From Eremomyces bilateralis CBS 781.70 (taxonomy: Eukaryota): a DNA stretch of 64,000 bases. The stretch lies in assembly GCA_010015585.1 (NCBI GenBank), contig ML975156.1. One strand, given 5' to 3'. Shown here one piece after another: positions 6,025 to 12,858 of this stretch (position 1 is its first letter; every line of letters begins with the position of its first letter). A program made the translations under genes and the position numbers. The notes under the pieces were generated by a model. The model saw only the letters and a list, made by a program, of their open reading frames with translations. It had not been told where the DNA came from and ran no database searches.

Positions 6025-9000
6025 ATGTCGCTTTCACTCTTCATCGCGCATAGCGGCGAACAACTACGCGCCGATCCGGTGTCCATAGGGTCCCTCGATG
6101 CTCTGAAACGTTGGATCCATGAGGCTACACGGATACCGGGAGAGGACCAGATCCTGTTAACATCTCGGGGGAAACACGTCAAGCTACAGACGCTACTCAC
6201 TGAGGTATGTATTCCGCTTGCATTTGTAACATCTGAACCGGAGAGTCCGAGGATTACAGTGTAGATATCTATCGTTCACCCCGTTCCCAACCTGACTCCA
6301 TACAGAAAGAGCTCTTCATCTACGACCGTGAACTATTCACCCATCCGAAGCAGGCGGCCCAGAACGTCCCCGAATCTCCGGCGCCAGAACCCTACATACC
6401 AACCGATCCTCCGGACACGCTTGCCAATCAAACCAACTTGAAGTCATGGCAGACCCTCTTTGCGTCGCGCCGCGACTGGGCGCTGGAGCTGACGCGCGAC
6501 TGCAAGTCCATGGCCCAGACCGCTGAGCGCCACTTCACGCAGCAATCGATCGTCGAACGGGGCCTGCATATCGCGACCGGCAACCATGAACCGCACGTTC
6601 GCGGCTTGGAACGAAAATGCCAGGAAGCACGGGAATGGTTTAAGGATGTATCGAAGGAACATCGAGAGAACGTGGATACCTGGGAGGCAGATGTGGACAA
6701 GTTGACACAGATCGGTGCCGTGGAAGACTTCCGGTATTACCTGAGCGCTGCTCCGTCACCGGTTGCGAGCAAGCCGAGCAAGAAATCATCGAATGCCACA
6801 ACACCGCTAGCGTCCTTCGTAGACGTGGATGCAACACAAAAGGCTGCGACGGCGACGAAGACTGCCACCGATGAGTTCGCTGGACGCATCTCAGACCTAG
6901 GGAGCAGGATAGCCGCTGTCGCTTCAGAGTATGATGGGCTCATGGAGCGACTTAACCAGTTGCACGGGAGGAGTACAAGCGGGGACATAGGTGAGCCAGG
7001 GAAGCTTCTCGAGGAAATAGAGGTGATTGCGCGGAAAGTTACGACCGATCATGACCACGTCATGGCCCTTCCACCAAATCCGAAGAGTGTCGCTCAGGTT
7101 TCCAAGATGGCTTTGCTACATACGAGGAACCATTTGCCGACGATCGCAGAGTACGCCGCGGAGATGGGTGATGTGGTGCGCAGAGCCGTGCATCAGAAGA
7201 ATACTGCGGTGCGGTCAATGCTCGAGCATATGAAGCTCATTGCATCTCTGGAAGGTCGGATAGACTCGCTCAAAAAGGAATTCAGTGGCCTTGAGCTATC
7301 GCCAGACATTATGACTGACTTTGATACCCTTGCCTTGGTCGGAAAATTACCCCTGCTTTACGGCAATCTGACTATCGAAACCGTCCGGTGCCGAGAGTGG
7401 ACGGAGAAGATGAAGCGCGATACAGAAGCGTTGGCGGAAGACCTGGCTGGTTACAAAGAAGAGGAGAACCGCCGACGGAAGAAATGGGTCCGAGGCATGG
7501 GAGAAGTGCTGCGGACCGGCTCTCTGGAGAGGAAGGTACTGGGCGTTGAGGTTAACCTCCAGGGTGGTGACGAGTCCTGGCCTGCTGTAACGCGAGAAGA
7601 CGTCGAAGCATACATTTACACTCTGAGCGAATTAGGCGGCTTCGATTCTACTGTGAGCACGCTCACGCAAAGCTTCAAGGACCTGGACAAACCGACCCGA
7701 TCTCAAATCAAGCGCGCAAAGGCATTTAAAAATGGCTCGGTCCATGAGGGACTCGGAAAAGGCTCCCTGATGCTTCGAGGGGAGGATGACAATCGAGTCT
7801 TACGAGTCGTTAACACCAGGCTTGAAGACGAACTTCGCGGTCAGAAATCGCGTATTCGTAAACTGGAGGATCTGCTACACCGACAAAGCCACATCAACCG
7901 CCTCGGTAGTCCAGGTAGCGCCGTAACGTTTCACGGAGGGGGCCTTAATAGCCCATCGTTCGATGCACCACCTACTCCGACGACCACCGCCCAACCAGCG
8001 AGGCATGAGCTGAAGAGTCCAAGTCCACGGCAGCATGATGAACATTCGCGCCGGTCGTCCATATCGAGCCGGCGATTCTCGGCGAATCAACCGGCTGAAG
8101 ACAAAGCGGCCTTGGTGCGGAAGGTTCTAGCCTTGGAAAACGAACTTACTACAGTGAAAGCAGCGCATGAAGTGCTCGAGCGAGAATCCGCTGGCAGGAC
8201 CGCCTCCGCTGCGCAAGAGCGTCGAGCAAGCGAGGAGAAGGTCTCCGAGGTCCAGCGACTCATGGCGGAGGCAAACTCCACGAAGGAAGATCTCATGAAG
8301 AACATGGACGCGCAGGCGAAGGAGTGGCAGAGTGAGCGGAAACATTTAATAGACGAGATACGAAAGCTGAAGGAAGACTATGAGGAGGATGTTGATAAAC
8401 TTATGGCGAGCCGAGAACAGGAGCGGGTTACACTCGAGGAGAAGGTGGATAACACAAGAATGGAGGGTGAAATGATCACGAGTGAGCTCGAGGTCCAACT
8501 CAAGAAAGTGGAAGAGAAGGCGGAGGCGAACCACGCAGTGGTCGACAAGCTAAAGGACTTGGTGCAGTTTATCCTCCGGAGTCTCAGCCAAAATGACGTG
8601 GAAGTACCGATCGGAGACGAAGAGTTAATAGTAGCAACCAGAGACATTGTTGACGATGTTCTGAAAACGCTTGTCGAGAAGAGCACCAGGATCGCCGATC
8701 AGCTCCAGGACGCTCAAATGAACACGGCACGGGTTGCTGCTCTCGAGTCCGACGCCGCCACTCTTCGTGAGGAGGCCGATACGCTGATGCGAGAAAAGGA
8801 ATCCCTCAACGCCGAGCTCCAAGAAATGAAGACGAGGTTCGACCAAGAGCAGCAAGAGCTACGTGATCTCGCCAAGATGCTCGAGGAGAAGCAGTCTGGC
8901 GACGCCGAAGGAGATGCCCGGATCATGCGCTTGATGTCCGAACTAGCCGAAGGCAAATCGCACATCAACACCCTCGACGCGAAGTTATCGTCCACCCAAC

Positions 9001-10259
9001 GACGCTACGAACGGCTCGTGGAATCGTTGAGGGCGGATGGGGCGCGCTTGGACGCACGTGCGGATCGTGCGAGGCAGTTGACACGGAAGCTTTTCACCAG
9101 CACGGAGCGCTTGAATCGGCTGGTGGAAACCCTTGGCTTTACCGTTGGCCAACCGGATGAGAAGGGGAATCTGATCATTCAACGCGCATCGAAAGTCTCG
9201 TCGTCCGGAGTATTGGCTGATGGTTCCGTCGTCAGTACCGTGTCGGGGTCGCGCAACCTCTCGAATCCCAGCGTGATGAAGCGCACGCTGGATGAACTGT
9301 CTGATAACGGAGCGCTCGAGTGGTCGTCGGCCAGCGCGGAGGAGGAGGAGGCGTCCAAGTTCGCGAATTATTTGAGCGCTATCGAGCAGTTCCCGCTCAA
9401 TGCGTTCTGCGAAGCCCTGGCGAAGCGTCAACGAGACGTCGAGCACACGGCGCGAAAATGGCAGAAAGAGTCCCGCACATATCGTGAACGAGCGCATCGC
9501 TACCAGCACGAATCGCACGAGAAGATCGCCTACCGTTCGTTCAAAGAGGGGGATCTGGCGCTTTTCCTTCCGACGCGCAATCAAACCCGCGGTGGTGCCT
9601 GGGCCGCGTTCAACGTGGGAGCACCGCATTACTTCCTCCGCGAACAAGAGTCCCACCGTCTTAGCGGGCGAGAGTGGCTCGTTGCCCGCATCGGCAAGAT
9701 CGAAGAGCGAGTGGTCGATCTGAGCCCGACCATGGAGGGAGGCAAACCTGCGACCGGCGGCCGTCGTAGGGGCACCTCGGTTGCCAGCATGGCGTCCGAA
9801 CTTGACGACGACAATCCATTCGAGCTAGGGGATGGCTTACGGTGGTATCTCCTGGACGCGCTGGAAGAGAAACCCCATCCGCTCGGCGCGCCCATCACGC
9901 CCCGCGCCGGTACCACCACGGTCGCGAGCGCGAACGTCGACGCGCGAGGGACGGTCGGCACGAGCAAGAAGGGCAATGGCGAGGGAGAAGCGGCGCGCAC
10001 CCTAGGCCGACTGGACGAGCGAGCGGCCGGGTCGACCCGAAGTCGGCGGAGTAGCGAGAACAGTCGACGGAGCGTGCCGCCGCCGGGGTCATCTGCGGGA
10101 CCCAAACCGTTGCTGCCGACCGAGAATAATGGCGAGGGAACAGCGGAAGGAAGCGCGGGGACGGAGCAGCGAGAGGGCGGAGACGTGACAATGAAGGCTC
10201 CGCCTCGGGACACGAGGGGAGAAGAAGAGGTTAGAACCGACCAGCTCCTCGGCCCGTAG
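6025..10259 (+). CDS. ATG11: Autophagy-related protein 11 (selective autophagy scaffold)
   Basis: Exon 1 6025-6204 (MSLSLFIAHSGEQL), intron 6205-6305, exon 2 6306-10259. Long coiled coil and C-terminal ATG11/claw domain KIAYRSFKEGDLALFLPTRN...WAAFNVGAPHYFL...DDDNPFELGDGLRWYLLDA. Confidence 0.95.
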
Positions 10260-10347
10260 AAGAGAGCTGCCATGTTTAGCTCTCTTCGCGGGCCCGGGAC
10301 CTCCCCATCCCGTCGTTCAGATGCTGATCGGTTCTTTCTCCCACCAG

Positions 10348-10641
10348 ATTCCCGCGCCGTCCACGCCGCTCAAACCGCCGCCGACCGCCGACCGCACCGC
10401 GCCCGCGCCAACGCTGACCGTGTCACCGCCCCACGCCACCCCCGATCGCGGCTCGGCGCGGATGTTTAGTCCGTCGGGCAATCGCACGGGCACGCGGCAA
10501 CCCAGCACCGCGTCGCCGGGACGCCGCAATGCGTCGGCTAGTCCGACGAAGAAGGGGAAGGGCGGGTGGGATAGCTTGTTTGATTTGAGTTTGAGCCTGG
10601 GGAGTCCGGGGCCGAAGAAGGGATCGGGGAGTATGGGCTGA
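10348..10641 (+). CDS. ATG11: Putative alternative terminal exon of ATG11
   Basis: Phase-0 donor GTTAGA at 10230, branch CTGAT near 10324, polypyrimidine tract and CAG at 10347. It joins in frame to IPAPSTPLKPP...GGWDSLFDLSLSLGSPGPKKGSGSMG*. Confidence 0.6.
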   Translation: MPAPSTPLKPPPTADRTAPAPTLTVSPPHATPDRGSARMFSPSGNRTGTRQPSTASPGRRNASASPTKKGKGGWDSLFDLSLSLGSPGPKKGSGSMG

Positions 10642-11069
10642 ATTCGACGGGGTTATTCGGCGCGGCTGTGTTTTCGGGGCGTGGGTTGCGCTTCTGGTGG
10701 TGGCGTCGCTGCCGACTTAGATATTCTGATCGTGCTTTTCAAGAGGACAGGGGTGGTGACGACATGCATTTATTTACGATAGTTGTATATAGGCAAATTC
10801 ACGTACTGTCGTATCTCAACCGCACATGTCTCAGGGAATACGCCAGAGGTATCTAGCAATGGGGATAAACGCACAAACATCACACCCAGTTCTTACGTTG
10901 GCTTCACATGAAACAATTTTGTATCATAACATCCTGCTCGCTCAATTAATTACAACTTTTAGGTTCATGCCGCATCAGTCGTATAACATATCCCATTCTA
11001 TTGATTCCATCCTCCGTGGATTGCAGTGGATACAGGCACTTGGAGCAGAGCGGCAGCCCTAGCAAGGAC

Positions 11070-12858
11070 CTAGGTCTTAACATCCGGCTCGTCGCGACCG
11101 ACGAATTCCTTCAAGCTCAGCAGCTCGGTGGCCATCTTGACCTCCGTCTTCAAGAAGTCCTGCGCATCCAACGGATACGCGCTCGCGTCGCTGGTGTGCT
11201 TCTCGATGTACAGACGGATAGTCGCGCCGCTGCTTCCCGTCCCTGACAAGCGCACGACGATGCGCGTGCCGTCGTCGAACTTGACGTAGATGCCCTGGTT
11301 CTTGCTGACGGATCCATCCAGGTCGGTGTACGCGAAGTCGTCCGCCTCGATGACCTTCTTGCCCGCCACGGTCGAGCCGACGAAGGTGTCGCGACCAGGC
11401 GAGGTGATGCGCTCCCGCATTAGGGCAACCACCTTGTTCGCGCCCTCGGAATCGACGTTCTCGTAGTCGTATCGGGTGAAGAAGGTGCGGCCGTACGTCG
11501 TCCAGAAGTCCATCTGGACGTCCTTAATGCTCGGGGTCTTGCCCGTCTTCTGGCCCACGCCGGCGAGGATGTTCAGCCAAGCCACGACGGCCCAGAGGCC
11601 GTCCTTCTCGCGCACGTGGTTGGCGCCGGTGCCGAAGGATTCCTCGCCGCAGATGTTCATCTTGTCGGCGTCGAAGAGGCCGCAGAAGAATTTCCAGCCG
11701 GTGGGGACTTCGTAGCATTCGAGGCCGCGGGCTTTGGCGACGAGGTCGACGGCGCGGGAGGTGGGCATAGACCGGGCGAGGCCGTAGACGCCTTGTTTCT
11801 TGAAGTAGGGGATCAGGTCGGCGTGGTGTGCGATGATGGCGAGGGAGTCGCCCGGTGAGACGAAGGCGTTGGCACCGTAGATCATGTTGCGGTCACCATC
11901 GCCATCGGATGCAGCGCCGAAGTGGATGCCGTTCTTGTCGACGGCGTCGACCAGGCTCTTGGCGTAGACCAAGTTGGGGTCGGGGTGATGCCCGCCGAAG
12001 TCGGGCTTCGGGATGCAGTTCTGCGTGCTGCCCTTGATGCCGAGCTCCTTCTCGAAGATCTCGACGCCGTACGGACCGGTCACGCCGGACAGGCCGTCGA
12101 ACAGGACTTTGAAGTCGGGGTGGGAGGACAGAAAGTCCTTGATGAGGGCAAAGTCGAAGATGTCCTTCAGCATTTTCACGTACAGGTCGGTGCTGTGAAT
12201 GATCTCGACCTCGAGCGGGCCGTATGTCTTGGACCCGATGTTGTCGATGTCAATGTCGGGGATGTTGGCGATCTTGTAGGAGGTGAGATCTTTGGAGGTG
12301 GAGAACATTTTATTAGTGACCGATTCGGGGGCCGGAGCTCCGTTCGAAAGGTTGTACTTGATGCCGAAGTCCTCGGTGGGACCTACAAGATAGATATCAG
12401 TACGGTGGTTGCTGTCATCTCAGGAAATGTGCTACTCACCGCCAGGATTGTGGCTGGCCGTCAGGAGGATCCCTCCAGTGGCCTTCATCTTGCGGATGAC
12501 ATGGCTGGCAGCCGGAGTGCTGAGAATGCCATGCTGACCGATCACGAGCTTCTTGACACCATATGCAGCTCCAATCTTCGCGATGAGCTGCGTCACCTCC
12601 GGATTCCAGTAGCGACCATCTCCACCGATGACGAGGGAGCTCCCTTCGGCGCCTTCGGGGATGGAGAGGAGGATAGAGGCGATGAAAGCCTCGGAGTAGT
12701 GGCTTTGCTGGAAGACCTTGACCTTCTTACGGAGGCCAGAGCTGTAAGGGGTGTCGTCAGCTAGTGGCCGCAGTTCGGAACTGTTTACACATGAAGTATA
12801 CGTACGTGCCAGGCTTCTGATCGGAGAAGGGGGAGATAGAGACTTCCTTGACGTCCAT
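11070..12858 (-). CDS. PGM2: Phosphoglucomutase
   Basis: Exons 12858-12806, 12741-12440, 12382-11070. Motifs DQKPGTSGLRKK, active-site TASHNPGG, metal loop [28 protein letters not shown]. Confidence 0.97.

Follow-up and report, generated by a model that had tools for sequence, protein, structure and literature searches.

The ATG11 locus of Eremomyces bilateralis

This report concerns the 3′ end of the autophagy gene ATG11 in the fungus Eremomyces bilateralis CBS 781.70, as found in a stretch of 64,000 nucleotides (nt) of contig ML975156.1 (assembly GCA_010015585.1) – hereafter the window, from whose first letter all positions are counted – where the last intron of the gene probably separates two conserved C-terminal isoforms that differ in a short docking motif. 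The open reading frame of ATG11 occupies 6237–10259 of the plus strand, its last codons reading RGEEE-VRTDQLLGP-TAG. Its protein (P0001) matches two Pfam domains, the ATG17-like PF04108 at residues 61–425 (E 2.1e-53; 182.5 bits, cut-off 43) and the C-terminal ATG11 or claw domain PF10377 at residues 1059–1208 (E 3.1e-48; 163.6 bits, cut-off 22), and the sole Pfam match in the central region is a sub-threshold FKBP15-like one. The gene is the E. bilateralis ATG11, a member of the Atg11/FIP200 scaffold family, with 1871 homologues at E <= 0.001 in a protein search. One public protein of 1437 residues (P0003), labelled at its source as ‘hypothetical protein, partial’ from Eremomyces bilateralis CBS 781.70, is 100% identical, and the exon limits given here come from tblastn of this protein onto the window. 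The features are as follows.

6025–6204, plus strand: ATG11 exon 1, 60 codons, MSLSLF...LLTE (tblastn of P0003 and sequence)
6205–6305, plus strand: ATG11 intron 1, 101 nt, GTATGT...ACAG, the gap between P0003 residues 60 and 61
6306–10229, plus strand: ATG11 exon 2, 1308 codons, with the ATG17-like domain at about 6417–7511 and the ATG11/claw domain at about 9411–9860
10230–10347, plus strand: ATG11 intron 2, 118 nt, with donor GTTAGA, CTGAT at 10324–10328 and acceptor CAG at 10345–10347
10230–10259, plus strand: short-form ending, the first 30 nt of intron 2, encoding VRTDQLLGP and TAG
10318–10320, plus strand: alternative in-frame acceptor CAG, giving a 91-nt intron that would insert MLIGSFSHQ ahead of IPAPS
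10348–10641, plus strand: coding part of ATG11 exon 3, 97 codons and TGA (10639–10641), a linker rich in Pro, Ser and Thr that leads into the conserved terminal motif
10555–10602, plus strand: conserved tail motif GKGG-WDSLFDLSLSLG, with W at 10567–10569 (40-tail alignment, and a profile made without the window row)

The predicted ATG11 products are 1465 residues long when intron 2 is spliced and 1377 when it is kept.

The last intron and its junction

The last intron of ATG11 is real. Its donor GTTAGA is in phase 0, position 10230 being the first base of a Val codon; a pyrimidine run lies between CTGAT and the acceptor CAG; and position 10348 is in frame with a reading frame open from 10195 to 10641, so that the spliced ending includes GGWDSLFDLSLSLGS before it reaches its stop codon, with the WDSL codons at 10567–10578. 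Removal of a canonical GT..AG intron fuses two open frames in the window, and the same architecture is found in 51 of 65 loci of relatives. The G+C content is 0.64–0.70 across 10250–10650 and drops to 0.43 at 10700–10999.

All of this had been proposed by an original prediction made on the window – the end of the frame, the phase-0 donor at 10230, the CTGAT, the CAG ending at 10347, the intron of 118 nt and the in-frame exon of 97 codons with its WDSL – and every coordinate is correct. The public protein P0003 uses the same junction, reading from RGEEE directly into IPAPSTPL (10229 to 10348). It is for this reason that the exon should not be called cryptic, as it then was: the junction already stands in P0003, which the prediction had overlooked together with the in-frame CAG at 10318–10320, and the tail is present in no fewer than 12 further public models of ATG11. 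P0003 ends in ASPTKK at 10554, without a stop codon and just short of GKGGWDSLFDL; therefore, the public protein is missing the one part of exon 3 that is strongly conserved.

Donors at the Val-Arg codons read GTN[ACG]GN in all lineages, with a G always at +5; in the window, the donor of intron 2 is GTTAGA and that of intron 1 is GTATGT. Since the need to encode Val-Arg constrains the donors of intron 2, they stay weak by the standard of the fungal splice consensus, which suits partial or regulated use. The entire intron measures no more than 54–63 nt in Leotiomycete-like loci, with a CTGA[CT] branch-like sequence a few bases past the stop codon, and the short form would there arise by simple retention.

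Contigs from run X1, whose RNA origin is only guessed, cover parts of 9300–11100; none bridges the intron, 10230–10345 is uncovered, and they are not counted as evidence. One record stops exactly at 10229 and another starts exactly at 10346; exon 2 and intron 2 both end in AG, and spliced and unspliced sequences are identical from 10346 on. These ends match an assembly graph branching at the predicted splice sites, a match that comes from the contigs of a single study and is treated as a coincidence, not as support. The downstream record is some 30-fold deeper than the upstream one, probably because of the phosphoglucomutase gene that converges on ATG11.

The 3′ part of that phosphoglucomutase gene lies at 11070–12419 on the minus strand. 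The stop codons of the two genes are about 430 nt apart, and their 3′ untranslated regions (UTRs) may overlap.

Conservation of the tail

A survey of 80 metagenome loci encoding a relative left 65 that reach a stop codon after the claw, as 11 lack the claw-end anchor motif and four run off their contig. With h for a hydrophobic residue, the tail was sought as [KR][KR]S-x-h-W-[DE]-S-L-[WF]-S-h-[DE]-h and the short ending as L-x-G-[PSRA]-stop. The tail motif is carried by 51 of the 65 loci, at 78–386 nt past the short-form stop, and the W-x-x-L-bearing tail of the original prediction is thus conserved well outside E. bilateralis. Relative to the claw, 20 loci have the motif in frame 0, 14 in frame 1 and 17 in frame 2, and a stop codon always intervenes; therefore, only splicing – and not stop-codon read-through – can attach the tail.

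Both the short ending and the tail motif are present in 41 of the 65 loci, and ten have the tail with no short ending that fits the pattern. Two more combine a short ending with a deviant tail only, one being a variant (L030) and the other having a stop codon at the Trp position (L048). Nine match neither pattern, namely the eight most distant loci and one (L043) that is missed by the pattern only; two have too little downstream sequence to be judged, and one (L056) is already spliced. The tail of L048 reads SVV-stop-DPLWKLDVN, which points to a tail exon in decay or to an error in the sequence. In Eurotiomycete-like loci, a tail profile finds variant tails, one containing RSRPWEKLWSLDYR and one ending in KTWDRLFSMEYHS and a stop codon.

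Across 40 distinct tails, the consensus is [KR][KR]-S-x-h-W-[DE]-S-L-[WF]-[SQ]-h-[DE]-h-x-h-[EQ], the most conserved positions being W (39 of 40) and L at +3 (35 of 40). A profile built from the tails of the 39 relatives, with the window row left out, was searched against 1826 six-frame segments of the 64-kb window, where its best match is 10507–10620 (17.2 bits, E 4.5e-4) and its next best has an E of 0.48. The window tail is thus, as judged from its sequence, a real but divergent member of the family. When the 97-residue tail alone was compared with 1.84 billion representative proteins, only P0003 and one low-complexity match came back, because a single sequence cannot find a 20-residue motif; the tail-bearing relatives were found instead through the C-termini of homologues and the DNA downstream of ATG11. 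Pfam has no family for the tail, nor for the antisense open reading frame at 10320–10652.

These results bear on the idea that E. bilateralis makes only the short protein and that the downstream frame is a relic or part of the 3′ UTR. The window motif is indeed the weakest member of its family, and P0003 breaks off ahead of it. However, all 97 codons are open and have a coding-like G+C content; the donor, the branch-like site and the acceptor are intact, with the junction used in P0003; and the best profile match of the whole window falls exactly at the tail. We regard this explanation as highly improbable.

The short ending evolves as protein

An ending of the D-x-L-h-G-P-stop type, that is, one fitting the short pattern, is kept in 44 of the 65 loci. 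For the last six codons and the stop, taken over 37 distinct DNA versions, the entropy at codon positions 1, 2 and 3 is 0.68/0.54/1.53 bits, compared with 1.89/1.87/1.87 bits in the 21 nt after the short-form stop and 1.60/1.78/1.92 bits in seven upstream linker codons. The third positions vary freely, all of TGA, TAA and TAG are used, the position of the stop is fixed, and conservation ceases there. At −6, which lies outside the selection pattern, Asp is found in 35 of the 37 versions and Asn in two. By these measures, the start of intron 2 evolves as coding sequence, and more strictly so than the stretch of exon that precedes it.

Seven lichen-like loci (L019, L032, L033, L038, L040, L042 and L060) keep the donor GT and the tail, and their read-through peptides are unrelated (QVGISRAPDW-stop and HVGKISASDL-stop, for example). 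This lineage appears to have lost the short ending, and its loci serve as a natural control for a sequence released from the need for a short form. A D-x-L-h core is common to the short and the long ending – in one group, DSLM-GP and W-DSLW-S, respectively – but the Trp is absent from the short one.

A third conserved island, separate from the two alternative endings, lies between them and the claw, at about 10030–10080 of the window (P0001 residues ~1266–1280). Most relatives read K-S-L-D-S-R-R-S-S-x-x-S-K-K there, the window has STRSRRSSENSRRS, and R1270, R1271, S1273 and S1276 are invariant across 19 sequences. The island looks like the site of a basic-preferring kinase.

Public protein models

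The C-termini of the best 120 of the 1871 homologues were inspected. The unspliced type of ending, EVR[KRT]D[LQ]L[WFL]GP, is found in 96 of these 120; six are spliced models with the common end motif, such as P0032 from Microthyrium, which ends in GGLWDSLWQFDLSLESGSKKK, and the protein of Parastagonospora nodorum, which ends in SIWDSFFQYDIEYSGGNGKAKK and is joined at the matching position, immediately ahead of the VR codons; the other 18, P0003 among them, end otherwise. A later profile search added tail models from Paraphaeosphaeria, Stemphylium, Coniothyrium, two Alternaria and Penicillium salamii, the last of which (P0135) carries a variant tail. In all, the junction or the tail is found in P0003, P0032, P0061, P0068, P0076, P0083, P0120, P0129–P0131 and P0133–P0135. 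Most of the short public proteins probably come from gene callers that do not model the intron, so the 96 of 120 are uninformative on usage.

It may then be asked whether this is simply a terminal intron that is always spliced, with the long protein alone being of importance and the short ending a fail-safe or leftover misread by gene callers. Such a view would account for P0003 and the 12 other public models with a spliced tail, for the presence of the tail in nearly all Pezizomycotina-like loci and for the lichen-like group, a sign that the short ending can be lost; the short public models, as probable caller artefacts, do not speak against it. Yet the interior of an intron is not normally an open frame with a fixed stop, synonymous third positions and class-wide D, L, G and P, and the entropies given above place the short ending under tighter conservation than the coding linker that precedes it. 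Moreover, two sequences from relatives (L005 and P0128, described below) resemble processed mRNAs that retain the short ending. On balance, an always-spliced intron seems unlikely.

Complementary DNA-like records in an Alternaria-like relative

Two kinds of joint are seen in an Alternaria-like group. One record, L056 (1354 nt), differs from the genomic L014 by the absence of 97 nt, which begin with GTGCGC (the Val-Arg codons), finish with GATAG and have GCTGAC shortly before that, and it reads directly from the Val codon site into a terminus that ends in KGSIWDSFFQYDIEYQGKASKK and a stop codon; two Alternaria models, P0133 and P0134, share this joint, GGN followed by SSIAQLQ. A second record, L005, is 99% identical to L056 upstream and keeps 40 nt encoding VRDLLWGP-stop, but is without the remaining 57 nt, which run from GTAAAT to GATAG in L014 and end at the same AG. 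An L005-like genome cannot be the source from which L056 was spliced, as L005 has no AG before the common downstream sequence. Most simply, the two records are read as two mRNAs of one kind of gene, made with two 5′ splice sites and one acceptor. The L005-type joint recurs, on an L014-like sequence, in P0128, a stand-alone open reading frame from a separate assembly source.

In five Pleosporales-like loci (L014, L007, L009, L016 and L002), a conserved element, GTAAATCTA, lies 7–20 nt past the short-form stop. Its fuller intronic form is TGTAAATCTA[AG]GC.CCC, and its GT bounds the piece that is absent from L005 and P0128, a position that suggests a further 5′ splice site. No evident equivalent of this element is present in the window.

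Two isoforms

Taken together, the preferred reading is that ATG11 has two conserved C-terminal isoforms, which we consider probable because both endings evolve as protein and because two cDNA-like joints are found in a relative. When the first 30 nt of the intron are kept in the mRNA, translation would continue for nine more codons to the VR-x-D-x-L-h-G-P-stop of the short form. When the intron is removed at its weak Val-Arg donor, those nine residues would be exchanged for a poorly conserved, S/T-P-rich linker of about 70 residues, rich in Pro, Ser and Thr, and the terminal motif [KR][KR]-S-x-h-W-[DE]-S-L-[WF]-S-h-[DE]-h-x-h-[EQ]. We infer that E. bilateralis makes both proteins and that their ratio would be a point of control.

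Several points weigh against this reading. The same pattern of conservation would result if the short ending were no more than a tolerated fail-safe for unspliced RNA, and the set used for the entropies was chosen by a pattern that fixes L, G and P, such that bias is absent only from the Asp column, from third positions and from the place of the stop. The cDNA-like status of L005 and L056 is deduced from their structure, and P0128 is known as protein only. The window motif is also the most divergent of its family, scoring 17.2 bits, and D and S have changed places between its positions +5 and +7.

The original prediction had likewise called for two Atg11 isoforms. That part is borne out by the conservation of both endings and the two kinds of joint in the Alternaria-like group, though for E. 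bilateralis itself the case is a comparative one. The nutrient-regulated splicing switch that it went on to propose finds no support in anything analysed here.

What the tail may bind

If two isoforms are made, the tail of the long one would act as a strand-addition docking motif on a flexible leash of about 70 residues, placed behind the claw domain that binds cargo receptors, and the short form would lack the anchoring Trp. The most likely partner, proposed here only tentatively, would be Atg8, engaged through a W-x-x-L of the Atg8-interacting motif (AIM) type. The AIM core [W/F/Y]-x-x-[L/I/V] is represented by WDSL in the window, and the strict core is present in 35 of the 40 tails, the other five having F at +3. 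Known AIMs favour acidic flanks, and W-[DE]-x-L is the classical core. In the tails, however, positions −6 to −1 average 2.1 K/R and 0.2 D/E, and this, together with the F at +3 in those five, speaks against an AIM; Ser at −3, found in 25 of the 40, could supply charge if phosphorylated.

The next candidate, an unlikely one, is the claw of Atg11 itself, to which the tail would bind as a receptor mimic; otherwise, the tail would dock on another partner. A broader alternative combines these two, holding that both isoforms exist and that the tail does not bind Atg8, being either a receptor mimic that occupies the claw (in autoinhibition or the control of oligomers) or a site for another partner. 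The basic flank and the Ser at −3 suit a phospho-switch better than a constitutive AIM, and the strictly alternating hydrophobic and polar residues that follow W-x-x-L in the column counts of the 40 tails suit strand addition. Positions +3 to +7 read L-h-x-h-[DE] in 33 of the 40, a pattern that also resembles a clathrin box. For the claw in particular, passages in PMC6477179 and PMC7946963 describe the FIP200 Claw as binding disordered, phospho-regulated regions of cargo receptors. Against this stand the W and the L, which are the most conserved residues, just as an AIM core predicts, and binding to the claw or another partner is hypothetical. We consider this alternative less likely than not.

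AlphaFold2 models of the spliced L056 product (350 residues), made from alignments of 40 and 111 rows, both have a mean predicted local distance difference test (pLDDT) score of 52 with a poorly folded claw, and are too weak for use; the tail shows only a slight local rise (block pLDDT 66 and 59).

In its widest form, the proposal would be a Pezizomycotina-wide splice switch in ATG11, in which W-x-x-L engages Atg8 or the protein’s own claw, the basic, Ser-containing flank serves as a kinase gate and the mix of isoforms tunes selective against bulk autophagy. As a whole, we hold this to be doubtful.

Significance

Atg11 is a hub that links cargo receptors to the machinery initiating autophagy, and its claw domain is usually taken as its C-terminus. 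A subphylum that includes plant pathogens, lichens and industrial moulds nonetheless appears to keep some 170–260 residues after the claw, with two conserved endings. Should the isoforms differ in the partners they bind, selective autophagy would have a control point open to direct test. On the practical side, C-terminal tags, deletions and complementation constructs built on short models may drop or disturb one isoform, because the short ending is where 96 of the 120 public models stop, and P0003 ends before the motif. If the splice switch is true, most published fungal ATG11 constructs, following the short model, would have covered one isoform only.

Comparison with known systems

The window protein resembles Atg11 and FIP200 (RB1CC1), scaffolds of the Atg1/ULK1 complex, in that an ATG17-like domain on its N-terminal side is paired with an ATG11 (claw) domain on its C-terminal side. 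The claw marks the end of the protein in yeast Atg11 and human FIP200, whereas ATG11 of the window type continues for those ~170–260 residues and has two conserved endings, between which splicing would choose. The public models with a tail are annotations only, with P0003 cut before the motif. A full-text literature search found no paper on splice isoforms or a C-terminal tail motif of fungal ATG11; in PMC9508853, Atg11 appears once, as an entry in the reference list.

Splice isoforms of core autophagy genes are already on record for one filamentous ascomycete, Beauveria bassiana, whose ATG8, ATG4 and ATG10 are alternatively spliced according to passages in PMC6550541 and PMC10128008. ATG11 is not named in those passages and, unlike the genes that are, it would represent a case that is conserved at the level of the class and exchanges one conserved C-terminus for another.

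Among scaffolds with a [W/F/Y]-x-x-[L/I/V]-type motif of their own, the likeness is to Arabidopsis ATG11, which is stated in PMC8666691 (citing Li et al. 2014) to bind ATG8 directly through two AIMs. The relevant passage of that source does not describe those AIMs as splice-dependent, whereas the fungal candidate, flanked by basic residues, lies at the very C-terminus and is reached by splicing only.

The FIP200-interacting region (FIR) motifs of cargo receptors are, in the passages on the Claw cited above, likewise short, hydrophobic and placed in a disordered, phosphorylatable region. In contrast to these, the ATG11 tail, a candidate motif, would act in cis, on the very protein that bears the claw.

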